This document shows, piece after piece, positions 1-23,400 of a stretch of 64,000 nt of DNA; within the stretch, counting starts at the first letter, position 1; each line of letters opens with the position of its first letter. The stretch lies in the NCBI GenBank assembly GCA_000004695.1, contig CM000155.2, forward strand, positions 352,001 to 416,000, written 5' to 3'. The notes beneath the pieces were generated by a model, which did not search any database, was not told the origin of the DNA, and saw only the letters and a list, made by a program, of their open reading frames with translations. The stretch comes from Dictyostelium discoideum (taxonomy: Eukaryota). Position numbers and translations under genes: made by a program.

Positions 1-44
1 AATATTGAAAATCATACAACAAAACTGATAATATTAAAATAAAT

Positions 45-63
45 TAGTGGGATGTGTGTGTTG
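45..63 (+). promoter_or_regulatory. Conserved GT/G-rich promoter block ttagtgggatgtgtgtgttg upstream of Tgr-like copy 1. Copies recur at 4101..4121 and 7619..7637. It is a candidate G-box (GBF-type) element.
   Basis: The block is conserved about 330 bp upstream of each exon-1 ATG, while the surrounding sequence is nearly pure A/T. It is G/GT-rich like Dictyostelium G-box/CAE elements. Confidence 0.35.
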
Positions 64-151
64 AAAAACATTATTTAATAAATTATGTGATTGTTTATTT
101 TTAATTTAATATTGAAGCATTACCTTATTGTTTTTATTATTATTTTATTAT

Positions 152-196
<45 letters not shown>

Positions 197-395
197 TATC
201 AATATTTTTTTTTTTTTTAATTATTATTAATATTTATGTTTTTTTTTTAATTATTAATATTTTTGTTTTTATATATTATTTTAATTTTTATTTTTTTTTA
301 TTTTTTTTATTTCAAATCATTAACAGTAATAATAAATTATTTAACATCCTCAAAAAAACAATTTCATAATTAAAATAATAAATAGTAAATCAAAA

Positions 396-559
396 ATGAA
401 ATTTATTATATTATTTTTTATTTTATATTTAGTTTCTGATACATTAGGATCTTTAAATGAACCAGTTGTCAAGAGTAAATATTTTAAATATAAATATAAT
501 TTAATTTTTTTTTTTTATTGTTTTTATTGTTTGGGTTATTTTTATTTCTCAAATTTAAT

Positions 560-621
<62 letters not shown>

Positions 622-3592
622 TTTGAATTATATTTGTTATTTACTATTTTTAATTTTTTAATATTAAAGTCTCCAAATATTCAGCTATTGTTTATTTTTT
701 ATATCATTGTTAATGTCATTAATAACTATAACTAGTTATTAATATAAATAAAAATCAATCATTTTGTAGATATATTATCTATTTATGTATTTTATAAGAT
801 ATTGATAATTTCCAACACTAATTTTTAATTTTTTGTTTGGTTCATTATTATTTTTTTAAAAATTGTTCAATGTTTTAACCACTTTTCAATGTAATTAAAG
901 ATATTTGCAATTGTTTATTAAAAAAAAAAAAAAAAATTGTTTGTTATTTTATTAAAAAAAAAAGAGCTACTGTTCATTTTTTAATAAATTAATTTTAAAT
1001 CAATATCTATAACAATTGATATTAATAAATAATAATCATTTAATAGATACATTATCTATATTTTTTGTAATTTTTTTAAAAAGAAATCAATAGTTTCCAA
1101 CACTAATTTTTTCTTATGATTTTATTTTAATTTCAGATTTTACATGCACAAAACAATCATTGGAATATACATATGATATTGATAGTACATATTATACAAA
1201 ATGGATTTTTTCAGATTTGGAATATGAATTGGTTTTTGAATGTAAAAATAATAGCAAAGAAAGAACATGTACTGCTGGTATGTCCATTGATATTGCTAAA
1301 AATTTACATGGTCAAATAAAGATGTGCGGAACTGATAATAATAGTGTATTAGATTGCCATTCGAATTACGAAGAATATTATCCAAAGCCAATTATTGAAG
1401 GTGACTTTAAACCATCTACCAAAGGTGGTCCTACTATTATGAAAGGTTATTATTTGGCAGTTGGTGCATACTACTATAACATTATCCCTTATACTAGATT
1501 GGGTATTATAGGTGATGTTCATAGTAACTCTATAGATGTCACAAATTTAATACTAGACTATAAAGGTGGTTGTGGCCCAAGAACTATTCAATGGCCAAAT
1601 GATTTTAAATATAGTTTCAATCATTCAAATCCAATCATTGAAAATATTTTTATTGAAGGTTCATCTTTTATATCAAAAGGTTCTAATTTTTGTAATTCTT
1701 CTGATTCAATTCAAATTTATTTAGATGGTGTTCAAATTGATAAATCAAAAATAAAATCAATTGATCATGAGCAGTTTGAAATAATTTACACTCAACTATA
1801 TTCAAAATCAATCAATGTTAAAATAGTATCTGGTGGACTTGAATCGAATATTTACAAATTGGATTTTAAACCTATACCTTTAAAAATTAATAGTGTTCCA
1901 AGATTAAAAGGTGGTTCAATTACAATAATTGGTGAAAGACTATCTTCACAAGTAAATAATTCAACAATCATTGTTAAAATTGGTCAATATGATTGTAAAA
2001 ATGTAATCTCATCAAAAAATGAAATTCTCTGTAATTTAGAATCGGTTCCAAATGTTGAAAAAGTTAAATTGGTAGATTTACAAGTTAATATCTCAATAAA
2101 TGGTATTTTTAATGAAAATAATTTATTATTCTCATTCGATATACCAATAATATCAGATTTTATACTTCCACAAGGTGAAGTTAAATTAGTTGGTGATTGT
2201 TTTGGTTCTTCACAATTGACTCAAGTTAAAATTGACGATGTATTACAATCCAATATAACAATTAATATTAATGAAAAAGAAACAACACTTTCATTTAAGC
2301 CAATTAAACCAATTAAAAAATCAAAGTTATATATAATTGTCAATGGTACAAAATCAAATACTATTGAAATTGATTCATCATTTTTTGTAAAAAGTGTTCC
2401 ATCTTCACCTTCAGTAAATGGTCAAATTGTAAACTTTACTCTTTTCAATATAAATCCAAATAATGTTAATGCAACACCAATTATGATTTTTCAAGATAAT
2501 AGTTCAATAAAAGCAATTGATTATAAAAATTCAAATGAATACTCAACTCACACATACTCTTTTGATATTCCAAAAAGTTGTGGGAGAAATGAAATTACAA
2601 TTTTAATTGGAGACCAACTAACCCGTACTGAAATTTATTATGAATTACCAATAATATCAAGTTGTTCAATTGTTTCAAATCAAATGATTAAATGTCTTGG
2701 TAATTTTTTAAATTATTTAGATTTATTTAAAAATGGTAAAATTAAAATACAATTTTCAAATATGGTAATAATTGATAATATTCCAAACAATCCAATTATT
2801 TTTATGAGTGATTCATTTTCATTCCCAATGAAGCCAGAGTATAGTTCAAGTGATATATATCTTATTGTTTGTGATGAAACTTCTCTAGATTTTAAAGTTG
2901 ATATAACTCCATCGCTTAAATTTGTGAGCCAATCTCTTGTTTTCAACTCCACTGGTGGTGAATTATTAATTAATGGTGAAAACTTAAATGAAAATACAAT
3001 TTACAATACATCTGTATATTGCTTTTCAAATAAACAAGTTTATAATTGTTCATTTATAAACAATACATCTATATCATGTGATATTGAATTGTTAGGTCCA
3101 TTCGATCAACTTTGTAAAATCAAATTTAATAGTAAAGATGAGAATAATAACATTTCAATATCATATTATCCTCCATTAGTTTTAAATTCAACAACGATTT
3201 CAAAATCATCAACTGGTGGAATTATTACTATTTTTGGTAATGAATTTTATAATCAAATTGATTCAATTACAGTTGGTAAAAGTAAATGTTTAAACTCTAC
3301 ATTTATAAATTCAACATCGATTTCATGTTTTGTAGAACCTTCAAATTTTAATATTAACCAAACTGAACAACAAAAAAAACAATATGTTAACATTATAATT
3401 AATGGTAAAAGTGGTGGTAATAATTTAATAATTTATTCTGGTAATTCAAATAGAATTGATGAAAATAACAAATCAAATAAAAATACAATTGACGAAAAAC
3501 AAACCAATAATGAAATCAAAAATGAATCTATTAAAAGAAATATAAATTTTATATTATTTATAATTATATTCTCAACAATTTTAATCATATAA
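396..3592 (+). CDS. IPT/TIG-domain cell-surface glycoprotein, Tgr(tiger)-family-like, copy 1. Model is join(396..474,1137..3592), about 844 aa. It has a signal peptide, several IPT/TIG repeats, many N-x-S/T sites and a hydrophobic extreme C-terminus, so it looks GPI-anchored or secreted.
   Basis: Exon 1 encodes [26 protein letters not shown], a signal peptide. The donor is AAGA|GTAAAT at 474/475 and the acceptor is tttcag| at 1136, with phase 1 preserved. IPT motifs follow the P..G..GGxITI.GxxF...V.xG...C pattern ([15 protein letters not shown]...[35 protein letters not shown]). The protein ends [17 protein letters not shown]. Confidence 0.85.
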
Positions 3593-4010
3593 TTTAATTT
3601 ATTAATTTCATTGTAAAAAAAAAAAAAAATAAAACTCCAACCAAAAACAATTATTGGGTATATATAAAAAATGATTATTTTTGGTGGGTTAAAAATAAAA
3701 TATAATACAATAATAAATTTTGAACTTATTTTTTTTTTTTTATTTTTTGATAATTTTTTTTTTTTTAATTATTTTTAAAATAATTATTTTTTTGTTTTTA
3801 CTATTTGATAAGTGTGATTGTGAATATTAATAATTTAAATAAAATATAAAATTAAAAATGATTAAAAATATAACCACTTATCATAAAATACTTTTTTTGG
3901 CAGTGGTTGAAAAAAAAAAAAAAAATAATAATATTCATTTCAATTAAAAAAAACACATCCAAAAAAGTTTAATAAAAAATAAATAGTATTCTAAAATGAT
4001 GAAAGAAACA

Positions 4011-4043
4011 CCAATTGGTGGGTGTGGTAAACTTGACACAGTG
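4011..4043 (+). promoter_or_regulatory. Second conserved G-rich block ccaattggtgggtgtggtaaacttgacacagtg (copy at 7523..7553) about 390 bp upstream of the copy-2 and copy-3 starts
   Basis: GGTGGGTGTGG core. It is retained in both inter-copy spacers despite the AT-rich, indel-rich surroundings. Confidence 0.35.
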
Positions 4044-4398
4044 TTTAATAAACATGATGAGTAATATTGAAAATCATACAACAAAACTGATAAAAATAAA
4101 TTAGTGTGGGAGTGTGTGTTGAAAAACATTTTTCAATAAATTATTTGATTGTTTTTTTTTAATTTACTATTGAAGCATCGTTACCTTAATTTTATTATTA
4201 TTATTATTATTATTTTTTTTTTTCTTTAATATTTTTTTTAATTATTATTATAATTTTTATTTTTTTTAATTATTAATATTTTTGTTTTTATATTTTTTTA
4301 ATTATTAATATTTTTTATTTTTTTATTTCAAATCATAAATTATTTAACATCCTCAAAAAAACAATTTTAATATTAAAATAATAATAGTAAATCAACAA

Positions 4399-4451
4399 TG
4401 AAAATTATTATATTTTTTTTTATTTTATATTTATTTTCCGATACATAAGGA
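4399..4451 (+). pseudogene. Disrupted signal-peptide exon of Tgr-like copy 2. It has an in-frame TAA (TTA to TAA) and a 9-nt deletion relative to copies 1 and 3.
   Basis: Copy 2 reads atgaaaattattatattttttttt...tccgatacaTAAggatctttagttgtcaagagtaaatat. Copies 1 and 3 read ...gatacaTTAggatctttaaatgaaccagttgtcaagagtaaatat. Confidence 0.6.
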
Positions 4452-4649
4452 TCTTTAGTTGTCAAGAGTAAATATATAAATTAAAATAATTTTAATTTTT
4501 TTTAGTTTTCATTATATCTATATGTACAAAATATATATGTGTCTTAGATAATCATTGAATAGATACATTATTTATATTTTGTATTTTTTTAAAAAGAAAT
4601 CAATGGTTTCCAACTCTAATTTTTTCTAATATTTACATTTTAATTTCAG

Positions 4650-7105
4650 ATTTTACATGCACAAAACAATCATTGGAATATACATATGATATCGATAGTA
4701 CATATTATACAAAATGGATTTTTTCAGATTTGGAATATGAATTGGTTTTTGAATGTAAAAATAATAGCAAAGAAAGAACATGTACTGCTGGTATGTCCAT
4801 TGATATTGCTAAAATTTTACATGGTCAAATAAAGAAGTGCGGAACTGATAATAATAGTGTATTAGATTGCCATTTGAAATACGAAGAATATTATCCAAAG
4901 CCAATTATTGAAGGTGACTTTAAACCATCTACCAAAGGTGGTCCTACTATTATGAAAGGTTATTATTTGGCAGTTGGTGCATACTACTATAACATTATCC
5001 CTTATACTAGATTGGGTATTATAGGTGATGTTCATTGTAACTCTATAGATGTCACAAATTTAATACTAGACTATAAAGGTGGTTGTGGCCCAAGAACTAT
5101 TCAATGGCCAAATGATTTTAAATATAGTTTCAATCATTCAAATCCAATCATTGAAAATATTTTTATTGAAGGTTCATCTTTTATATCAAAAGGTTCTAAT
5201 TTTTGTAATTCTTCTGATTCAATTCAAATTTATTTAGATGGTGTTCAAATTGATAAATCAAAAATAAAATCAATTGATCATGAGCAGTTTGAAATAATTT
5301 ACACTCAACTATATTCAAAATCAATCAATGTTAAAATAGTATCTGGTGGACTTGAATCGAATATTTACAAATTGGATTTTAAACCTATACCTTTAAAAAT
5401 TAATAGTGTTCCAAGATTAAAAGGTGGTTCAATTACAATAATTGGTGAAAGACTATCTTCACAAGTAAATAATTCAACAATCATTGTTAAAATTGGTCAA
5501 TATCATTGTAAAAAGGTAATCTCATCAAAAAATGAAATTCTATGTAATTTAGAATCGGTTCCAAATGTTGAAAAAGTTAAATTGGTAGATTTACAAGTTA
5601 ATATCTCAATAAATGGTATTTTTAATGAAAATAATTTATTATTCTCATTCGATATACCAATAATATCAGATTTTATACTTCCACAAGGTGAAGTTAAATT
5701 AGTTGGTGATTGTTTTGGTTCTTCACAATTAACTCAAGTTAAAATTGACGATGTGTTACAATCTAATATAACAATTAATATTAATGAAAAAGAAACAACA
5801 CTTTCATTTAAGCCAATTAAACCAATTAAAAAATCAAAGTTATATATAATTGTCAATGGTACAAAATCAAATACTATTGAAATTGATTCATCATTTTTTG
5901 TAAAAAGTGTTCCATCTTCACCTTCAGTAAATGGTCAAATTGTAAACTTTACTCTTTTCAATATAAATCCAAATAATGTTAATGAAACACCAATTATGAT
6001 TTTTCAAGATAATAGTTCAATAAATGCAATTGATTATAAAAATTCAAATGAAAACTCGACTCACACATACTCTTTTGATATTCCAAAAAGTTGTGGGAGA
6101 AATGAAATTACAATTTTAATTGGAGACCAACTAACCCGTACTGAAATTTATTATGAATTACCAATAATATCAAGTTGTTCAATTGTTTCAAATCAAATGA
6201 TTAAATGTCTTGGTAATTTTTTAAATTATCTAGATTTATTTAAAAATGGTAAAATTAAAATACAATTTTCAAATATGGTAATAATTGATAATATTCCAAA
6301 CAATCCAAATATTTTTATGAGTGATTCATTTTCATTCCCAATGAAGCCAGAGTATAGTTCAAGTGATATATATCTTATTGTTTGTGATGAAACTTCTCCA
6401 GATTTTAAAGTTGATATAACTCCATCGCTTAAATTTGTGAGCCAATCTCTTGTTTTCAACTCCACTGGTGGTGAATTATTAATTAATGGTGAAAATTTTA
6501 ATGAAAATACAATTTACAATACATCTGTATATTGCTTTTCAAATAAACAAGTTTATAATTGTTCATTTATAAACAATACATCTATCTCATGTGATATTGA
6601 ATTGGTAGGTCCATTCGATCAACTTTGTAAAATCAAATTTAATGGTAAAGATGAGAATTATAACATTTCAATATCATATTATCCTCCATTAGTTTTAAAT
6701 TCAACAACGATTTCGAATTCATCGATTGGTGGAATTATTATAATTTTTGGTAATGAATTTTATAATCAAATTGATTCAATTACAGTTGGTAAAAGTAAAT
6801 GTTTAAACTCTACATTTATAAATTCAACATCGATTTCATGTTTTGTAGAACCTTCAAATTTTATTATTAATCAAACTGAACAACAACAACAACAATATGT
6901 TAACATTACAATTAATAACAAAAGTGGTGGTAATAATTTAATAATTTATTCTGGTAATTCAAATAGAATTGATGAAAATAATAAATCAAATAAAAATACA
7001 ATTGATGATAAACAAACCAACAATGAAATCAAAAATGAATCCATAAAAAGAAATATAAATTTAATTTTATTTATAATTATATTCTCAACGATTTTAATCA
7101 TTTAA
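4650..7105 (+). CDS. Tgr-like IPT/TIG glycoprotein copy 2, main exon. Acceptor is tttcag| at 4649. It is 97-98% identical to copy 1 and has the same hydrophobic C-terminus. Because the upstream signal-peptide exon is broken, this is a possible pseudogene or a product lacking a signal peptide.
   Basis: The ORF 4673..7105 begins at an in-frame TTG. The reading frame stays open back to the acceptor at 4650. Alignment to copy 1 is nearly gap-free. Confidence 0.7.
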
Positions 7106-7943
7106 TTAAATTTATTACTTTCGTTATAAAAAAAATTATACTCCCACCAAAAACAATGATTGAATATATATAAAAAATGATTATTTTTAGTGGTTTTGTG
7201 TTAAATAAAAAAAAAAAAAATACAATAATAAATTTTGAACATGTTGTTTTTTTTTTTTTATATTTTTTTTTTTTTCTAATTATTTTTATAATAATTATTT
7301 TTTTGTTTTTGCTATTTGATAAGTGTGTTATTGTGAATTTTGATAATTAAAATAATATATAAAATCAAAAATAATTAAAAATATAACCACTTCTCATAAA
7401 CTACTTTTTATGGTAGTGGGTGAAAAAAAAAAAAATAATAATTTTCATTTCAATTAAAAAAAACAAGCCTAAAAAATTTTAATACAATTAATAGTTTTCT
7501 AATATGATGAAAGAAACATCAAGTGGTGGGTGTGGTAAACTTGGCACACAGTGTTAAAAAAAAACAATATGAGTAATTTTGAAAATCATACAACAAAACT
7601 GATAATATTAAAATAAATTAGTGGGATGTGTGTGTTGAAAAACATTATTTAATAAATTATGTGATTTGTTTATTTTAATTTAATATTGAAGCATTACCTT
7701 ATTGTTTTTATTATTATTTTTTTTTTTTTTTTTTTTTTTTTTTATTATTATCAATATTTTTTTTTTTTAATTATTATTAATATTTATGTTTTTTTAATTA
7801 TTAATATTTTTGTTTTTATATATTATTTTAATTATTATTTTTTTATTATTTTTTTTATTTCAAATCATTTACAGTAATAATAAATTATTTAACATCCTCA
7901 AAAAAACAATTTCATTATTAAAATAATAAATAGTAAACCAAAA

Positions 7944-8105
7944 ATGAAATATATTATATTATTTTTTATTTTATATTTAGTTTCTGATACATTAGGATCT
8001 TTAAATGAACCAGTTGTCAAGAGTAAATATTTTAAATATAAAAATAATTTTATTTTTTTTTTTTTATTGTTTTTACTGTTTGGGTTATTTTTATATCTCA
8101 AATTT

Positions 8106-8151
<46 letters not shown>

Positions 8152-11100
8152 TTTGATTATTGTTGTTATTTACTATTTTTAATTTTTTAATATTAAAGTC
8201 TCCAAATATTCAGCTATTGTTTATTTTTTTATATCATTGTTAATGTCATTAATAACTATAACTAGTTATTAATATAAATAAATATCAATCATTTTGTAGA
8301 TATATTATCTATTTATGTATTTTATAAAAGATATTGATAATTTCCAACACCAATTTTTAATTTTTTTATTTGGTTCATTAATATTTTTTTAAAAAATTTT
8401 CAATGTTTTAACCACTTGTCAATGTAATTAAAGATATTTGCAATTGTTTATTAAAAAAAAAAAAAAAAAAAAAATTGTTTGTTATTTTTTTAAAAAAAAA
8501 AAAAAAGAGCTACTGTTCATTTTTTAATAAATTAATTTTAAATTAATATCTATAACTATTAATATTAATAAATATTAATCATTTATTAGATACATTATCT
8601 CTATTTTTTGTATTTTTTTAAAAAGAAATCAATGGTTTCCAACACTAATTTTTTCTTATGATTTTATTTTAATTTTAGATTTTACATGCACAAAACAATC
8701 ATTGGAATATACATATGATATTGATAGTACATATTATTCAAAATGGATTTTTTCAAATTTGAAATATGAATTGGTTTTTGAATGTAAAAATAATAGCAAA
8801 GAAAGAACATGTACTGCTGGTATGTCCATTGATATTGCTAAAAATTTACATGGTCAAATAAAGATGTGCAGAACTGATAATAATGGTGTATTAGATTGCC
8901 ATTCGAATTACGAAGAATATTTTCCAAAGCCAATTATTGAAGGTGACTTTAAACCATCTACCAAAGGTGGTCCTACTATTATGAAAGGTTATTATTTGGC
9001 AGTTGGAGTAATTCCTTACTTTACTATTATCCCTGATACTATATTGGGAACAATAGGTGATATTTTTAGTAACTCTATAGATGTCACAAATTTAATACTA
9101 GACTATAAAGGTGGTTGTGGCCCAAGAACTATTCAATGGCCAAATGATTTTAAATATAGTTTCAATCATTCAAATCCAATCATTGAAAATATTTTGATAG
9201 AAGGTTCATCTTTTATATCAAAAGGTTCTAATTTTTGTAATTCTTCTGATTCAATTCAAATTTATTTAGATGGTGTTCAAATTGATAAATCAAAAATAAA
9301 ATCAATTGATCATGAACAATTTGAAATAATTTACACTCAACTATATTCAAAATCAATAAATGTTAAAATAGTATCTGGTGGACTTGAATCGAATATTTAC
9401 AAATTGGATCTTAAACCTATACCTTTAAAAATTAATAGTGTTCCAAGATTAAAAGGTGGTTCAATTACAATAATTGGTGAAAGACTATCTTCACAAGTAA
9501 ATAATTCAACAATCATTGTTAAAATTGGTCAATATGATTGTAAAAATGTAATCTCATCAAAAAATGAAATTCTCTGTAATTTAGAATCGGTTCCAAATGT
9601 TGAAAAGGTTAAATTGGTAGATTTACAAGTTAATATCTCAATAAATGGTATTTTTAATGAAAATAATTTATTATTCTCATTCGATATACCAATAATATCA
9701 GATTTTATACTTCCTCAAGGTGAAGTTAAATTAGTTGGTGATTGTTTTGGTTCTTCACAATTGACTCAAGTTAAAATTGACGATGTGTTACAATCCAATA
9801 TAACAATTAATATTAATGAAAAAGAAACAACACTTTCATTTAAGCCAATTAAACCAATTAAAAAATCAAAGTTATATGTAATTGTCAATGGTACAAAATC
9901 AAATACTATTGAAATTGATTCATCATTTTTTGTAAAAAGTGTTCCATCTTCACCTTCAGTAAATGGTCAAATTGTAAACTTTACACTTTTCAATATAAAT
10001 CCAAATAATGTTAATGCAACACCAATTATGATTTTTCAAGATAATAGTTCAATAAAAGCAATTGATTATAAAAATTCAAATGAATACTCAACTCACACAT
10101 ACTCTTTTGATATTCCAAAAAGTTGTGGGAGAAATGAAATTACAATTTTAATTGGAGACCAACTAACCCGTACTGAAATTTATTATGAATTACCAATAAT
10201 ATCAAGTTGTTCAATTGTTTCAAATCAAATGATTAAATGTCTTGGTAATTTTATAAATTATCTAGATTTATTTAAAAATGGTAAAATTAAAATACAATTT
10301 TCAAATATGGTAATAATTGATAATGTTCCAAACAATCCAATTATTTTTATGAGTGATTCATTTTCATTCCCAATGAAGCCAGAGTATAGTTCAAGTGATA
10401 TATATCTTATTGTTTGTAATGAAATTTCTCCAGATTTTAAAGTTGATATAACTCCATCGCTTAAATTTGTGAGCCAATCTCTTGTTTTCAACTCCACTGG
10501 TGGTGAATTATTAATTAATGGTGAAAATTTTAATGAAAATACAATTTACAATACATCTGTATATTGCTTTTCAAATAAACAAGTTTATAATTGTTCATTT
10601 ATAAACTATACATCTATCTCATGTGATATTGAATTGGTAGGTCCATTCGATCAACTTTGTAAAATCAAATTTAATGGAAAAGATGAGGAGTATAACATTT
10701 CAATATCATATTATCCTCCATTAGTTTTAAATTCAACAACGATTTCGAATTCATCAATTGGTGGAATTATTACAATTTTTGGTAATGAATTTTATAATCA
10801 AATTGATTCAATTACAGTTGGTAAAAGTAAATGTTTAAACTCTACATTTATTAACTCAACATCAGTTTCATGTTTTTTAGAACCTTCCAAAATTATTATT
10901 GATCAAAGCAAACAACAACAGCAACAACAACAACAACAACAACAATATGTTAACATCACGATTAATGGTAAAAGTGGTGGTAATAATTTAATTATTTATT
11001 TTGATAATTCAATTATTGAAGTTAAAAACCAATCAAGCCAAAGTGATAAAAACAACAACAACAACAACAACAACAATGGTAAAAATATAAATAATGGTGA

Positions 11101-11863
11101 TAGTAAAACTGATGGTAGAAGTTTTTATGAAAAAAATAAAAAATGGATAACAGTATTAATAATAATTGGAAGTTTGGCATTACTTTTATTTATCTTTTTT
11201 GGTATAATTTATTGTAATAGAAAAAACGGTACTGTTATCTATTGGAAATATATTATGTGTCGCGGAATCAAAGAAAAAAAATATAAATTTAAAAATAGAA
11301 AAGAGATAAAACAAATACAAGAATTAAGACATACATTGGATAATGCAGAGACAATTTTTGCTGACTTTGAATTAGATAATATAATAACTTATTCAGAGTA
11401 TCAACTTACACCCGAAAATCGTCTACGAAAAGAACAACAAGAATTAGCTCGAGAAAATTATATTGAAACTTACCCAGATTATTATTTACATATAAATAAA
11501 ACTAAAAATTTACCAAATAATGATTCATTACCTCCAAATCAAGTTGAAAATTTACCAAATAATAATTCATTACCTCCAAATAAAATTGAAAATTCATTAC
11601 CTCCGAATCAAACTGAAAATTTACCAAATAATAATTCATTACCTCCAAATCAAACTGAAACATTACAAGAAGATTCTTTACCTCCAAATCAAACTGAAAC
11701 ATTACCAGAAGTTTCATTACCTCCAAATCATATTGAAACATTACCAGAAGTTTCATTACCTCCAAATCAAATTGAAACATTACCAGAAGTTTCATTACCT
11801 CCAAATCATATTGAAAAACTAACAGACAATTCATCATCATCTCAAGACCCAAGCTCTTCATAA
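7944..11863 (+). CDS. Tgr-like IPT/TIG type-I transmembrane glycoprotein, copy 3, full length. Model is join(7944..8022,8679..11863), about 1087 aa. After the ectodomain it has polyQ and polyN linkers, a TM helix ([23 protein letters not shown]) and a roughly 230-aa cytoplasmic tail with eight SLPPNQTE-type repeats.
   Basis: Exon 1 is identical in structure to copy 1, with donor GTAAAT at 8023 and acceptor ttttag| at 8678. The ORF 8702..11863 continues through the TM segment. A basic stop-transfer run (CNRKNG) follows the TM. Confidence 0.85.
11500..11830 (+). repeat. Coding tandem repeat of 39-42 nt, about 8 units, encoding (N/T)LP(NNN/EV)SLPPN(Q/H)(T/I)E in the cytoplasmic tail of copy 3
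   Basis: aatttaccaaataataattcattacctccaaatcaaactgaa recurs with small substitutions. Both alternative frames also stay open (ORFs 11502..11861 minus and 11520..11822 plus), which is typical of a repeat. Confidence 0.9.
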
Positions 11864-12637: not shown

Positions 12638-14239
12638 ATGTCATATAATGGTATTGGAATAAAGACAGCAAGAGGTACAGGTACAAATGGTTATGTACAA
12701 AGAAATTTATCATATGTTAATACAAATTATAATAAAACTGAATATAGTATAAAAAAAGAAAGAGAATCAATTCTTGAACAACAAAAAAAACAACAATCAC
12801 AACCAATTAAAAAAGCAAATTTAGAATTAATTGAACATAATAGAAAAAGAAGAATTGAAGTTGAAATTGCACAATGGGCAGAAGAAAATGATTTATATGA
12901 AAAATATAAAGATCAAGAAGAATTGGATGCATTATTAGCAAAGAAAAGAGAAGAATTATTAGAGAAACAACAACAACAACAACAAAATAATAATAATAAT
13001 AATACCACTGAAGAAGAAGAAGAGGATGGGCAATATTCAAAACTAACAGATTCACATTCAAAACAATATCAAAAAGAAAAAGAGATAAAAAGATTCACAG
13101 ATGCATTAAACATTAAAGATTATATACCTGGTGCTTCTTTAGATAAGCAAGTTCAACAAGAACGTAAAGAAAAAAGACATCAAGAATATTTAGAAAGACA
13201 AAAAGAAAGAGAAAGAAAACAAAAAGAACATGAAAAACTTGAAAGAGATAGACAAAGAGAATACGATAGAAGAAGTAGAGATTCAGATAGAGATATTGAT
13301 AGATATAAAAGTACTAAAGATAGAGATAGAGATAGCGATAGAGATAGACATAGAGACAGAGACAGTGATAGATATAGAAGTAGTAGAGATAGTAGAGATA
13401 GTAGAGGTAGTAGAGATAGTAGAGATAGTAGAGATAGTAGAGATATTAGAGGTAGTAGGGATAGTAGGGATAATAGAGATAGTAGAGATAGAAGATATAG
13501 ATCTCGTAGTCGTTCAAATTCTCCTTCTTATTCAAAATCAACATCCCCAAGTAAGAGAGATAGAGATAGAAAGTCATATAGAGATCGTTCAGATTCAGAG
13601 TCATCATCAAGTAGTAGAGAAAGAGATCGTTCACATTCAATATCACCAAAAAGAGAAAAGAATACAACAACAACAACAACAAAAACAGCAATAAAGGAGA
13701 GATCAGTTTCTCCACCAAATATTGCTAGAAACAGATCACCACCACATAGAGATAGAGGTAATAAAAAAGAAGAAGAGGGGGATAAATCAATGTCACCACC
13801 AAGAAATAGAAGTGGTAGAAATAGATCGCTTTCACCATCACAATCACCAGCAATAAAAAGAAGTGTTAAAAAAGATGAAGAGGAGGATAAATCAATGTCA
13901 CCACCAAGAAATAGAAGTGGTAGAAATAGATCACTTTCACCATCGCAATCACCAACAATAAAAAGAAGTGTTAAAAAAGATGAAGAATCAATGTCACCAC
14001 CAAGAAATAGAGTTGGTAGAAATAGATCACTTTCACCAGCAATAAAAAGAAGTGTTAAAAAAGAAGAAAAGGAAGAAGAATCAATGTCACCACCAAGAAA
14101 AAGAAATAAAGATGATGAGGAGGAGCAGGAGGAGGAAGAGGATCTGAGATCAATATTTCCTTCAAGAAAAAGACAAAACACTCAAGACCATGAATCACCA
14201 CAAAGAAAAAGACTCGATTCTTCCTCTGATACTGATTAA
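12638..14239 (+). CDS. SRRM2/Cwc21-family splicing-associated protein. It has an N-terminal cwf21 motif and an RD/RS-rich domain.
   Basis: The N-terminus MSYNGIGIKTARGTGTNGYVQRNLSYV matches the conserved MYNGIGLxTPRGSGTNGYVQRNLS start of SRRM2/Cwc21. (RDS/RSR)n and SPPRNRSGRNRSLSP repeats follow. It is a single exon. Confidence 0.85.
   Translation: MSYNGIGIKTARGTGTNGYVQRNLSYVNTNYNKTEYSIKKERESILEQQKKQQSQPIKKANLELIEHNRKRRIEVEIAQWAEENDLYEKYKDQEELDALLAKKREELLEKQQQQQQNNNNNNTTEEEEEDGQYSKLTDSHSKQYQKEKEIKRFTDALNIKDYIPGASLDKQVQQERKEKRHQEYLERQKERERKQKEHEKLERDRQREYDRRSRDSDRDIDRYKSTKDRDRDSDRDRHRDRDSDRYRSSRDSRDSRGSRDSRDSRDSRDIRGSRDSRDNRDSRDRRYRSRSRSNSPSYSKSTSPSKRDRDRKSYRDRSDSESSSSSRERDRSHSISPKREKNTTTTTTKTAIKERSVSPPNIARNRSPPHRDRGNKKEEEGDKSMSPPRNRSGRNRSLSPSQSPAIKRSVKKDEEEDKSMSPPRNRSGRNRSLSPSQSPTIKRSVKKDEESMSPPRNRVGRNRSLSPAIKRSVKKEEKEEESMSPPRKRNKDDEEEQEEEEDLRSIFPSRKRQNTQDHESPQRKRLDSSSDTD
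13786..14100 (+). repeat. Three copies of an intragenic repeat of about 110 nt (SMSPPRNRSGRNRSLSPSQSPAIKRSVKKDEEE) within the SRRM2-like CDS
   Basis: Repeated nucleotide blocks beginning gataaatcaatgtcaccaccaagaaatagaagtggtagaaatagatc... Confidence 0.8.
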
Positions 14240-14299: not shown

Positions 14300-15520
14300 T
14301 TATTTTTTTTTAATATGATTACATTCAATATAAATTGATAATATAAAACCAATAACAATTAAAATGTAACCTGGTATGGCGACTAATGGTAATTTCATAT
14401 GTTTAATTATTATATCAAATATTAAAGTTAATGGTATTGCCATTAATTCACCGGCTCTAACGAATAAAGGTGATGATGTAATTGATAAACCCCAATTAAT
14501 TAAATAATTAATTGAGAAAATTATAACAGTATTTGAAAAAATAATACCAAATGATTTTGGGTGTGGAATTTTAAATAATTCAAAATTTGTAAAATTGAAA
14601 ATTACCATTATTGGAATTCCAATTAAAAATCCAATAAATCCAATAAATGCTAAATATGTATGAACGATTGTTCTATTAACGTCACCTAATATTTTTGAAA
14701 CTAAAACTTCATATAAACCATATAAACTAGCTGATAAAATCATTAATAAATAACCTTTAACTTTATTTGATAATATTTGATTTTCAATTATTTCTGAACT
14801 TGTTCCTAATGTAGTACCTAAAGTTATTCCAATAATACCTGCCATAAAAATTATTACTGAAATTGTTTTTAAAAATCTAATTCTTTCTTTTAATATAATT
14901 ATTGAAAAAATAAAACAAAAAATAGATGCACTTTCTTTTATTTTTTAAAAAAAAAAAAAAAATTAATATATAAATATTAAATTATTATAATATTATTTTA
15001 TAAGTAACATACGATATAATGCTGTTGAAATACTAACATCTATTAATGGTAATGCATATAACCAAATCCAATTCATAAAAAGAAATAAAATTGACATTGG
15101 AATTGAAATTGAAAATAATTTTTTTAATTTAATTGAATTATCATTACTTACAAATTTACTTTTATAGTAATTTAAAAATGAAATTTTAATATTATCTGAT
15201 GATTGTTGTTGTTGTTGTTTTTCTTTTTTAAATAATTCAATTTTTAATAAAATTAATTCTATTAAAATTGAAAAAACTGAAAATGATACATTAAACCATG
15301 TTATCATAAATGATGAATCGAAATCATTTATTATAATATATTGTGATAATTCTGCACTTGTTGTATTTGATATTGCAATTAAAATAATTATAATAATTCC
15401 AATAAATTTTAAAAACCCATTTTTATTATTTTTAGATAATTCAATATTATCTTTATTTAATATATTACTATTTTCAATATTATTATTATTATTAATATTT
15501 ATAATTTCCAAATTATCCAT
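14300..15520 (-). CDS. Multi-pass membrane transporter of the DMT superfamily, SLC35F/Thi74-like. Model is join(15013..15520,14300..14856), about 354 aa.
   Basis: The two minus-strand ORFs join through an intron with donor TATC|GTATGT at 15012 and acceptor tttcag| at 14857, preserving phase 1. It has about 10 hydrophobic helices. The motif NWGLSITSSPLFVRAGELMAIPLTLIFD resembles EamA/SLC35F transporters. Confidence 0.6.
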
Positions 15521-20427: not shown

Positions 20428-21345
20428 TTTTCTTTGACTAATTAAACTTGTTGGTAATGTTGATGGTAATGTTGATGGTATTGGTGGTATTGGTGTAATT
20501 GGTGTTAAATTATCAATGATTATATCTCTATTATCAACTATTGTTACTGTTTTTCTTCTAACTGAATTATTATTATTATTATTGTTATTTGTTGATTCAA
20601 ATCCTCCCCCTCCTGTATTCGATGATACTGGTAATGATGATAATGACGATTCTTTTTTAATTATTGAAACTGGATGATGATGAGGTGGTTGTTGTTGTTG
20701 TTGTTGTTGATAATGACCTGCTGTTATATTATTATAGCAATTATTATTGTGTTGATTATTTATTAAATTATTTAAATGATTTTTTGTAAATGTATTAAAT
20801 ATTCTGCTATCTTGAGATTGAATTTGTGGAATACTATTACTATTACTACTCTTTTCACTTAAATGACTATTTTTACTATTCGATGTATTTTTATTACTAT
20901 TATTATTATTACTTGTAGTTGTGGTTGTATTATTAATATTATTATTATTATTATTATTATCTAAATTCTTATTTTTATTTTTCCCACTTATATTCTCTTT
21001 GATTTTTTTATTTAATCTATTTTGTTTTTTAGAATGATTTTATAGAAAAAAAAAAAAAAAAAAAATTAATAAACTTTTTTTCTTTCAAAAATTTGCTTTG
21101 AAATATTAAAAAAAAAAAAAAAAAAATTAAAAAAATAAATTATAAAAAAAAATTAAAAATAAATATAAATAGTAACAATGATTAATTAAAGATTCAATAG
21201 ATCAATTTAATTTGTTTTTTTTTGTTTTTGTTTTTTTATTTTTATTTTTTTATTTTTGTTTTTATTTTTGTTTTTTTTTTTAATAAAAAATAATAATAAT
21301 AACAAGAGAGGGAGAGGGGGGTATTATTTACTTTTGAGCCCCAAC

Positions 21346-21397
<52 letters not shown>

Positions 21398-21452
21398 ATA
21401 TGATATATAGGATTTATAAAGTATTTTAAAAAAAAATATATATAAATATTTG

Positions 21453-21488
<36 letters not shown>

Positions 21489-22193
21489 TGGAGGGTGATG
21501 GAAAAATAATTATAGTGATAATAAAAATTATTTTAAAATAAATAAATAAATAAAATAATAATAAATATATTTTAAAATAATAAAATGTTTTAAAAAATAA
21601 AAAATAAAAAAATAAAAAAATAAAAAAATAAAAAAACAATTTGTATATACATGTGTGTTTGTATGTATTTTGTTGATGAACAATAAATAAAATTAAATAA
21701 TAATAAAAATAAAATATCTCTAATAATTTTTTAAAATTACTAGGTGTGGTAATTTTATAAACATATATATATATATCAAATATATATATATATTTATGTA
21801 TAAAAAATATTTTATATGATGGGTTGGAAAACACACACAAAATTATTATTATTTTTAATTTATATATAAATTTAGTAATCTTATAATAATAATAATATAT
21901 ACATTTTTAGTTGTTGTTGTGTTTGTTGTTGTTGTTGTTGTTGGTAGTAGTGATGTTGTGCCTGATGGACCATGGTTAAAAAAAAATAATAGATTTTAAA
22001 TAAAAAATTATTAATATTTTTATAATAATAATTTATTTAAAAAAAGGTAATTTGTTTGAAGAACCAAATAAGAGTTTTAATAATTATAATTATAATTATA
22101 AATTAAAATTAAAATTAAAATAATAAATAAATAAATAAATAGCACACCCTTTAATTTTAAAAAGGTCACTCTTTTTTTTTTAAAAAAAAAAAA

Positions 22194-22194
<1 letters not shown>

Positions 22195-22283
<89 letters not shown>

Positions 22284-22285
22284 CA
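22195..22285. repeat. (AAT)n microsatellite, about 30 units
   Basis: ataataataat... throughout. It produces the spurious polyI ORF 22077..22286. Confidence 0.95.
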
Positions 22286-23400
22286 CTCTTATAAAATGGT
22301 AATATACATCTTATCTATTAATAAGAGAATATTTTATTATTTATTATTATTTATTATTAAATTTATTTTAAAAAAAAAATAAAAAAAAAAAAAAAAATTT
22401 TAAATGATATAAAATAAAATAAAATAAAAAAATCATATAGAAAAAAAAAAAAATAAAAAAAAAATAAATCAAAAAATGCACATATAATCTTAAATAACAA
22501 TTTGATCATGTAAACACATATAAAAACCCCACTTTTTAATATAAAAAAAAAAAAAAAAAACTGAAACACAACCACAAAGTAAAAATAGCAATAAACATGA
22601 AAATAAACAATTCATCCTTTCTTTGATTGGGGGTGAAAAAAAAAAAAAAAAAAAAAAAAGTGGAACAATTACTTTTGTACTAAAGTGGCCACTAATATCT
22701 ATTATCTATTATTTTCAATATTATTTTTACTTTTTTATTATTATTATATTTATATTTTTTTTTTTATTCATTTTTTATTCATTTTTTTTTTTATTATTTT
22801 TATTATTAATATTAATAATATTATTATTTTTATTATTACTACTAATATTATTATTATTACTATTAACTATTATTGGATGACACTATTTTCTAAAGAAAGT
22901 AAAAAAGAAAAAAAAAAAAAAAAACACAATTTACAAGAAAATTTTATTTTACTCCTACTCTACCACAAAATAATTTTAAAAAATCTATATGAAGTCATTT
23001 TAATTTAAATATTGATGATGATGATGATGATGATTAATCAACCCATTTTTCATAATGCCAATGAATGAATAATTTATGGGCAAATTTATAATTTTGATTT
23101 AATCCAATCCAACCCCATTTTATTATAATAAATATATGACAAAATAAAAAAAATAAAAAAATAAAAATATATCATACTATACAATTATTTTAAAATTGTA
23201 TTTTGACTATAATATTTACTAATTTCGAATTGTTATTATTATTTGTTTTTTTTTTTTTTTTTGTTCTAAATATAGTTATTATTATAATATTATAATATTA
23301 TTATTATTTGGTATTATAAAAAATACTGTTCGAATTCATAGATTTTTTCTATTTATTTTGAATTTATTTTTAAACCAAACTTTTGATGTGGACTAAAACA

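Follow-up and report, generated by a model that had tools for sequence, protein, structure and literature searches.

Paired GT-rich boxes upstream of a tandem tgr gene array in Dictyostelium discoideum: a probable cis-regulatory module with putative GBF sites

The tandem array

The window, that is, the entire 64-kb stretch of chromosome 6 of Dictyostelium discoideum AX4 that was analyzed, opens with three tandem tgr-type IPT/TIG (Pfam Ig_TgrO1) genes on the forward strand (1-11863) that are part of a longer array. The first of these (396..3592; exon 1 396-474, exon 2 1137-3592; forward strand) encodes an 844-aa protein with the Pfam Ig_TgrO1/TIG assignment that is identical to the AX4 protein P0005 (EAL61817). 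The third (7944..11863; exon 1 7944-8022, exon 2 8679-11863; forward strand) encodes a protein of 1087 aa with a transmembrane segment and a cytoplasmic tail that is identical to P0001 (EAL61818, Q54EL4). The copy between them (4398..7105, forward strand) is probably a pseudogene: its frame is interrupted by a TAA at codon 17, exon 1 has lost 9 nt and the intron is shortened, and no matching protein was found among the AX4 proteins. The count of three genes in the initial annotation thus has to be revised to at least four same-strand members, one of which is interrupted at codon 17.

The array genes combine the Ig_TgrO1 (PF24612) and TIG (PF01833) domains of Pfam with an N-terminal hydrophobic leader, and these features, along with the number of same-strand copies, are those of a tgrA-type cluster of the tgr (Tiger) family. 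The array is most likely the tgrA cluster, a name that we infer from the description in bioRxiv 10.1101/2025.10.22.684067. The tgrAHIO genes show low expression in clonal development (PMC12745789; bioRxiv 10.1101/2025.10.22.684067).

Two GT-rich boxes in the upstream regions

Two GT-rich boxes are located approximately 300-400 bases upstream of the array genes, on the far side of a long oligo-T tract and of a conserved TTTATTTCAAATCATTAACA region, the likely position of the core promoter. The proximal box (block 1) is present as the exact sequence TTAGTGGGATGTGTGTGTTG in copy 1 (44..63, some 350 nt before its ATG at 396), where it includes TGTGTGTGT, a KGKGKGK run, and in copy 3 (7618..7637), and as the indel variant TTAGTGTGGGAGTGTGTGTTG in copy 2 (4101..4121), in all cases on the forward strand. 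The distal box (block 2), also on the forward strand, is the exact GGTGGGTGTGGTAAACTTGACACAGTG in copy 2 (4017..4043), with GGTGGGTGTGG followed by an inverted CACA half, and differs from GGTGGGTGTGGTAAACTTGACACAGTG by 3 mismatches in copy 3 (7525..7551); in copy 1, it lies just to the left of window position 1 and is seen in L005 (about 2053-2080), an assembly with 99.3% identity. In shuffled sequence, 0 matches are expected for either block. Hence the earlier observation that both blocks are kept upstream of each copy stands, with the distal block of copy 1 located through L005, but not in the sense of exact identity.

The boxes are embedded in a conserved upstream module that alignments delineate at 3996..4188 in copy 2 and 7502..7702 in copy 3 (both forward strand); in copy 1, the right-hand part occupies 1..128 of the same strand, and L005 supplies the missing left part including block 2. 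The surroundings of the boxes, described in the initial annotation as homopolymeric A/T, are nothing of the kind: complex AT-rich sequence (ATATGATGAAAGAAAC..., ATTGAAAATCATACAACAAAACTGATA, ATTGAAGCATTACCTTAT) extends over about 200 bp and is retained equally well, together with weaker G islands. A third such island, TGGTAGTGGGTG (7411..7422, forward strand), precedes block 2 of copy 3 by about 100 nt; its copy 2 counterpart is at 3899-3909, and it is also kept in the dispersed copy L006. Other weak G islands occur at 3683-3689 and at about 3808-3826, and similar GT-rich islands are found in another intergenic region of the window.

Could the blocks act at the level of RNA or protein, by forming a hairpin or by serving as an upstream ORF or small first exon? 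An ATGATG-initiated mini-ORF does span block 2 (3996-4064); one public annotation takes it as the N-terminus of copy 2 (MMKETPIGGCGKL...), the AX2-type assembly making it exon 1 of P0007, so the mini-ORF accounts for this odd public gene model. Its length and frame, however, differ from copy to copy (17, 22, 10 and 37 codons), and neither D. citrinum nor D. firmibasis has it; an upstream ORF or coding exon was accordingly rejected. Block 2 also contains an inverted GTGTG...CACAC pair, but five orthologous segments folded as DNA had z-scores of -0.9 to +0.8 against shuffles, the two halves share the same orientation in the syntenic orthologs L008 and L009, and D. dimigraforme carries the entire module inverted, so that a hairpin or cruciform was rejected as well. 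A G-quadruplex was rejected by inspection, the AX4 boxes having only three runs of at least 2 G, and the search for ncRNAs and tRNAs with ARAGORN and Rfam (gathering threshold) yielded no match in the entire window. A function at the RNA or protein level is thus largely refuted and appears extremely improbable.

Conservation within the array and across species

The array units, each of 3.5 kb, are 94-97% identical to each other over their whole length. In one comparison of copies, identity is 47/47 in the boxes vs 232/243 in the flanks (p=0.22), and in a second one, 41/47 vs 197/243 (p=0.41); among the array copies, conservation of the boxes does not exceed that of the flanks. Moreover, copy 2, the probable pseudogene, still has both boxes. 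The copies arose by recent duplication and one of them is probably dead, so that the retention of the boxes between copies is uninformative, and the argument from conservation within the array to shared developmental control carries no weight. Conservation among tandem paralogs is not evidence of constraint; comparison with sister species is. All these observations fit the possibility that the boxes have no function, having been kept through recent duplication and gene conversion, and that any likeness across species reflects the GT-rich islands and (GT)n microsatellites that are common in the intergenic DNA of Dictyostelium. The presence of similar islands elsewhere in the window points the same way.

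Pairs of GT boxes separated by 40-100 nt also precede Ig_TgrO1 genes in at least four other taxa: D. citrinum, D. firmibasis, D. dimigraforme, where the pair is inverted, and a cryptic D. discoideum-like species. They lie 220-450 nt before the ATG, and they recur as well in paralogs with only 45-50% protein identity. Three of these species are well diverged from D. discoideum, given that third-codon identity to copy 3 is 0.74 in D. citrinum, 0.71 in D. dimigraforme and 0.64 in D. firmibasis. At least one GT box is present at -600..-1 in 17/17 Ig_TgrO1 genes vs 13/47 neighboring non-tgr genes (p=9e-8), or in 8/8 vs 13/47 when the genes are collapsed to lineages (p=2e-4), although these Fisher tests overstate independence, the compared tgr upstream regions being related by descent. 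With a GT box in some 28% of the unrelated upstream regions, an observation that agrees with functionless boxes, only the paired, positioned arrangement is distinctive: a same-strand pair is present in 11/17 Ig_TgrO1 genes vs 2/47 controls. The pair is missing from one Ig_TgrO1 gene (L007, minus strand) and from one other TIG gene (L010:11334).

The sequence similarity itself was assessed by counting G/C-informative k-mers, which replaced an AT-aware local alignment against mononucleotide shuffles that proved to be dominated by oligo-T tracts and was unusable as a test. All but one of the informative 8-mers common to the region upstream of AX4 copy 3 and other species lie inside the two boxes, and at least one such 8-mer is present in 10/11 tgr regions vs 11/47 controls (p=6e-5). 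The distal box has its best-conserved core in GTGTGGTA, which is not a microsatellite and is common to D. discoideum, D. citrinum and distant syntenic orthologs. The syntenic single-copy orthologs L008 (D. firmibasis) and L009 (D. citrinum) share a single alignable upstream island of about 120 bp (-330..-210), with both boxes inside and unalignable sequence around it. In diverged paralogs, identity is 0.85-0.94 in the boxes vs 0.73-0.76 in the module flanks, and the inversion of the entire module in D. dimigraforme argues for an element that acts at the DNA level and independently of orientation.

The limits of this comparison lie in the tgrA-type promoters themselves. Multiple alignment with MAFFT and global pairwise alignment both handle the copies of the discoideum clade well but place the boxes wrongly in D. 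citrinum and D. firmibasis; in global pairwise alignments of the tgrA-type promoters of D. discoideum, D. citrinum and D. firmibasis, the boxes do not align. Because these global alignments fail, the homology of the boxes across the tgrA-type promoters of these species rests on short matches and position. Furthermore, the distal box of D. firmibasis is a (GT)n run of 9, 15 or 31 nt, length-variable as a microsatellite would be. Both facts favor functionless boxes. Against that explanation stand the enrichment of boxes and box pairs over controls, their constant position at -220..-450, the non-microsatellite core, the clear L008/L009 footprint between unalignable flanks and the excess of box over flank identity in diverged paralogs. 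Taken together, the boxes are kept in orthologous promoters in which the non-coding surroundings have diverged, notwithstanding the lack of global alignment among the tgrA-type promoters. We thus consider a lack of function unlikely and hold, from sequence comparison, that the boxes are quite probably functional cis-regulatory sites; the box module is probably a cis-regulatory module of an already known, G-box type.

Factors that might bind the boxes

Which factor, then, might recognize these sites? The response element of GBF is (T/G)G(T/G)G(T/G)G(T/G), typically as paired sites (PMC2257962). Runs of KGKGKGK that conform to this element, 9-11 nt in length, are present in every AX4 box and extend up to 16-31 nt in other species; in the 64-kb window as a whole, there are 55 matches vs 32.5 +/- 5.9 in shuffles, and 39 runs. 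The consensus is highly degenerate and its matches are frequent, which counts against the GBF reading. The arrangement also agrees with paired, flexible half-sites: each box holds overlapping heptamers, block 2 joins a GT half to an inverted CA half, and the two boxes are 40-100 nt apart. GBF elements reportedly consist of two half-sites or close pairs with flexible spacing and orientation, findings said to go back to Hjorth in 1990 and Schnitzler in 1994. A profile search for tgrB1/tgrC1 as a positive-control promoter found only the same Ig_TgrO1 clade. An RNA-seq series on the gbfA-null mutant has been published (PMC8327917). The original suggestion that the blocks are GBF sites accordingly keeps the consensus match and the location upstream of tgr genes, and gains recurrence across species, but loses the support it drew from conservation within the array. 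The boxes are putative GBF sites, and the assignment of GBF as the factor that binds them is a tentative one.

The boxes might, alternatively, be functional for another factor, such as the bZIP protein DimB, a regulator specific to the family, or some other protein of the zinc-finger or Myb type; the genes would then not have to be members of the post-aggregative GBF/cAMP class. The DimB site is CCCCAC-like, that is, GTGGGG on the other strand (PMC3253789), and the copies of the cryptic species have GTGGGG in their proximal box (TTAGTGGGGGTGTGTGT); the AX4 boxes, however, with GTGGGA/GTGGGT, match CCCCAC at just 5/6 positions. The distal-box core GTGTGGTA is longer than the KGKGKGK consensus, and the low expression in clonal development is a poor fit to strong GBF-driven induction. 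Conversely, the boxes vary between species yet stay GT-rich, which suits a factor for dissimilar elements more than one for a fixed hexamer; the title under which PMC2257962 cites Hjorth et al. 1990 speaks of a factor able to 'recognise dissimilar G/C-rich elements'. On this evidence, a factor other than GBF appears somewhat unlikely.

The explanation that we favor, with moderate confidence, is an upstream regulatory module of about 120-200 bp in which the two blocks would form the G/T-rich cores. The module would belong to the Ig_TgrO1-type tgr genes (the tgrA/H/I/O clade) and would have been carried along through many gene duplications, with GBF as the leading candidate and the array co-regulated. 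The boxes would bind a sequence-tolerant zinc-finger activator of GT-rich 'G-box/CAE' elements, for which GBF (gbfA) would be the prime candidate. If GBF is indeed the factor, the array genes would fall, together with tgrC1/lagC, in the post-aggregative class that depends on cAMP and GBF, and their members would be co-regulated.

A more radical possibility is that the paired boxes and the GTGTGGTA core are not generic GBF sites at all but a portable tgrA/H/I/O promoter cassette that is read by a dedicated regulator and copied at each duplication or transposition, the genes being near-silent in clonal development and switched on only in special social contexts. This appears improbable; were it true, chimeric aggregates, the sexual cycle or particular cell subtypes could be such contexts. 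Copying of the upstream region along with the gene is evident from L004, L006 and L007, dispersed copies whose upstream homology extends over about 600 bp.

The tgrA/H/I/O genes are among the fastest-expanding gene families of Dictyostelium. A conserved and easily mutable module would provide a handle for reporters of when and where these genes are on, for their possible place in the GBF/TgrC1 feed-forward program that governs the switch to multicellularity, and for separating live from dead array copies.

Comparison with known systems

GBF elements are the G-boxes, or CAEs, of post-aggregative Dictyostelium genes (cprB/CP2, cotC/SP60 and the lagC/tgrC1 class). Like the array boxes, they are GT-rich (CA-rich on the other strand), paired upstream of the gene, tolerant of changes in sequence and orientation, and found near a tgr-family adhesion gene. 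The array boxes differ in that the core GTGTGGTA goes beyond the published consensus and that the genes are reported to be weakly expressed in clonal development.

The closest parallel in design is the sigN family, likewise tandemly duplicated, with near-identical promoters that contain pairs of putative GBF sites inferred from an alignment of paralog promoters (PMC2257962). The sigN genes are developmentally regulated, and one member is GBF-dependent on microarrays; for sigN there are also reporter data and induction at 10-12 h (PMC2257962). The array boxes, unlike those in the sigN report, are seen in other species too.

The DimB sites (ecmA R1/R2 and site S of pspA; PMC3253789) resemble the array boxes in having a short C/G-rich core in an A/T-rich promoter, with two sites close to each other. 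The array boxes contain longer GT runs and match the DimB site incompletely, and DimB mediates DIF responses and prestalk/prespore patterning rather than the switch from aggregation to mound. Finally, the divergent promoter shared by tgrB1 and tgrC1 is, like those of the array, a promoter of the tgr family, and tgrC1/lagC is GBF-dependent, as far as it is cited in PMC2257962; there, however, one promoter serves a head-to-head pair, whereas the array genes are unpaired and on the same strand, as is typical of the tgrA type.

Organization of the array

Within the window, the G+C content of which is 22.5%, positions 1-11863 are occupied by three copies of a ~3.5-kb unit, all on the same strand. 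Each copy consists of a signal-peptide exon of 79 nt (70 nt in copy 2), a single intron and a long exon that codes for IPT/TIG repeats with the Pfam domains PF24612 (Ig_TgrO1) and PF01833. The product of copy 1 (396-3592) is the AX4 protein P0005 and that of copy 3 (7944-11863) is identical to AX4 P0001 (EAL61818/Q54EL4). In copy 2 (4398-7105), exon 1 has a 9-nt deletion and the intron is ~470 nt shorter than its counterparts in copies 1 and 3; given a TAA at codon 17 (4446-4448) and the lack of a match among the AX4 proteins, this copy is probably a pseudogene. One more copy, to the left of the window, is present in a 99.3%-identical assembly (L005), which brings the array to four members or more; from the published description of the tgrA cluster (bioRxiv 10.1101/2025.10.22.684067) we infer that the array is this cluster.

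In copies 1 and 2, the C-terminus is a short hydrophobic tail (3540-3592 and 7053-7105) and a cytoplasmic domain is absent. Copy 3 departs from them past ~11012, up to 11863, and alone among the three encodes a transmembrane segment followed by a cytoplasmic tail, the latter including 6.3 tandem 39-nt repeats (11588-11834) that encode units similar to a 12-residue sequence; the last member of the array would therefore be the only one to yield a transmembrane Tgr protein of conventional type. In copies 1 (475-1136) and 3 (8023-8678), the long intron 1 contains an internal ~280-nt duplication (for example, 757-830 is similar to 1034-1112, with TTTCCAACACTAATTTTT at the end of both) and a T run of ~60 nt; most of this intron is missing in copy 2. 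Directly downstream of the array, 12638-14239 holds a gene for a 533-aa protein with a long RS/RD-rich region, presumably resembling a splicing factor of the Cwc21/SRRM2 type.

GT-rich boxes within the array

The two blocks that the initial annotation placed upstream of each copy are real. Block 1, the proximal GT box, has exact matches at 44-63 (copy 1) and 7618-7637 (copy 3) and an indel variant at 4101-4121 (copy 2); block 2, the distal box, is matched exactly at 4017-4043 (copy 2) and with three mismatches at 7525-7551 (copy 3), and that of copy 1 lies directly outside the window and was found in L005. The distance to the ATG is 280-350 nt for block 1 and 380-420 nt for block 2, with weaker G islands further upstream. 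The surroundings are not homopolymeric A/T, as had been stated: the blocks are embedded in complex AT-rich sequence of ~200 bp, which is retained equally well.

So could retention among the array copies be taken as a sign of function, as had been argued? Whole units are near-identical, at 97% in the coding exons, 96% in third codon positions and 78-98% in intergenic DNA, and the blocks do not stand significantly above 243 flanking nt in either of two comparisons (47/47 vs 232/243, p=0.22; 41/47 vs 197/243, p=0.41). Given this exon identity, the lack of a significant excess over the flanks and the presence of both blocks in copy 2, the probable pseudogene, we have to regard retention among the copies as uninformative.

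Box pairs in other Dictyostelium loci

Members of this family were recovered by protein searches from newly sequenced Dictyostelium genomes, and eleven loci were retrieved. A GT-rich box pair at roughly equal distance from the ATG is present in L001, L002, L003, L004, L006 and L007. In the tandem array of D. firmibasis (L001), the distal box is GCTGTGGTG(TG)nATTGAACCTCACAATG at ~-330 and the proximal box TTTAGGGTGGTGGACTGTGTTCAAAAA at ~-245; in two genes of D. citrinum (L002), these are (GGTGT)GGGTGTGGTAATTTAAAGTTCACACC at ~-300 and GTGTGGGTGTGTAGAAA at ~-235. Both boxes are also found in a 76%-identical paralogue (L004) and in dispersed copies of a cryptic D. discoideum-like species (L006, L007). 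In D. dimigraforme (L003, 7680-7730), the coding strand is CA-rich at both boxes, whose distance from the ATG is the usual one and whose order is that expected from inversion of the whole module. Boxes extend to more distant members (45-53% protein identity; L008-L011), including the syntenic orthologues L008 (D. firmibasis) and L009 (D. citrinum), which neighbour a p450 gene and PRP8: their boxes, GTGTGGTATTRCAGTTGKGTGT and ATGTGGTGAGTGTGTG, both lie inside the sole alignable upstream island, -330..-210. The pair is absent from one Ig_TgrO1 gene (L007, minus strand) and from a different TIG gene (L010:11334).

The dispersed paralogues share ~600 bp of upstream homology with the array unit (L004 7200-7300; L006/L007 7400-8000) and in L004 a preceding copy's 3' end is retained as well; array-type units that include the promoter therefore seem to be the source of new copies. 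At ~15080-15200, L007 further carries a deleted and fused form of the module (TTATTGCAGTGGGGTGTGTTGAAAAACATTTTTCAATAAATT) standing alone.

Boxes were defined by a fixed rule (a 14-nt window with ≥6 G and ≥13 G+T, either strand), and 47 neighbouring non-tgr genes sharing no intergenic region with a tgr gene served as controls. At least one box within 600 nt upstream was found for 17/17 Ig_TgrO1 genes vs 13/47 controls (p=9e-8), and a same-strand pair 20-130 nt apart for 11/17 vs 2/47 (p=1e-6). Since tgr promoters are related by descent, the genes were collapsed to eight lineages, which gives 8/8 vs 13/47 (p=2e-4) and 5/8 vs 2/47 (p=3e-4), respectively. Among 8-mers with ≥4 G/C common to the upstream regions of AX4 copy 3 and of tgr genes from other species, all except one fall inside the two boxes; at least one occurs in 10/11 tgr regions vs 11/47 controls (p=6e-5). 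The lineages compared are well diverged, judging from third-codon identity to copy 3 (D. citrinum 0.74, D. dimigraforme 0.71, D. firmibasis 0.64), and in diverged discoideum-clade paralogues identity is 0.85-0.94 in the boxes, 0.73-0.76 in the module flanks and 0.81-0.87 in third codon positions. Global alignments of tgrA-type promoters from D. discoideum, D. citrinum and D. firmibasis did not align the boxes. The D. firmibasis distal box (L001 2320-2360, 6050-6070, 9670-9690) is a (GT)n of 31, 9 and 15 nt, a length variation that is microsatellite behaviour; each intergenic region of this array also has a second copy of the box region upstream, via a ~350-bp internal duplication. Taken together, the between-species comparison, rather than the array itself, provides reasonable evidence for constraint on the boxes.

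A probable regulatory module and its candidate reader

What, then, could the boxes do? An RNA-level or coding role is very unlikely: tRNA and Rfam searches gave no matches, the box segments fold no better than shuffled sequence, the mini-ORF over block 2 (3996-4064 in copy 2) differs in length and frame between copies, and one species has the module in inverted orientation. Assembly GCA_054883475 annotates copy 2 as an 857-aa protein (P0007), a model that is an annotation artefact because its N-terminus, MMKETPIGGCGKLDTVFNKHDE, is this chance mini-ORF. The boxes lie upstream of a long oligo-T tract and of a conserved TTTATTTCAAATCATTAACA segment near -85 that, by the usual Dictyostelium promoter layout, would correspond to core promoter and start region. 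With this placement and the failure of the RNA and coding readings, the boxes most likely act as an upstream activating module to which a transcription factor binds. The proposal that the boxes are regulatory sites survives on the box pairs of other species, which make a conserved cis-regulatory module probable, and loses array-copy conservation as its evidence.

The identification of the reader as GBF (G-box binding factor), also proposed initially, calls for more caution. The KGKGKGK consensus of GBF sites (PMC2257962), which the boxes match and which was found 55 times in the window vs 32.5 +/- 5.9 in shuffles, is too loose to be diagnostic for GBF; DimB, with its CCCCAC/GTGGGG site (PMC3253789), or another factor altogether possibly binds the boxes; and expression of the tgrAHIO genes is reported to be weak during clonal development (PMC12745789; bioRxiv 10.1101/2025.10.22.684067). 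For these reasons, we hold GBF to be a plausible candidate and its binding to the module a tentative proposition. In the long gene-poor intergenic stretch at 21000-22700, which includes an (AAT)n tract of ~85 nt (22196-22282), isolated islands of G or GT occur at several sites (GGAGAGGGGGGT at 21310, GGAGGGTGATGG at 21490, TGTGTGT at 21652, GGTGTGGTAA at 21743 and ACACACACA at 21831), which shows G-box-like islands to be a common feature of D. discoideum intergenic DNA.

GBF is the leading candidate because it binds G-rich motifs of both prestalk and prespore genes, because it is required for expression of lagC/tgrC1 (PMC2257962; PMC6598861), and because the sigN family offers a close precedent, there too with duplicated genes and paired putative GBF sites, and with GBF dependence of one member on microarrays (PMC2257962). 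The boxes appear to add a further case, in the tgr genes, to a well-known class of Dictyostelium promoter element.
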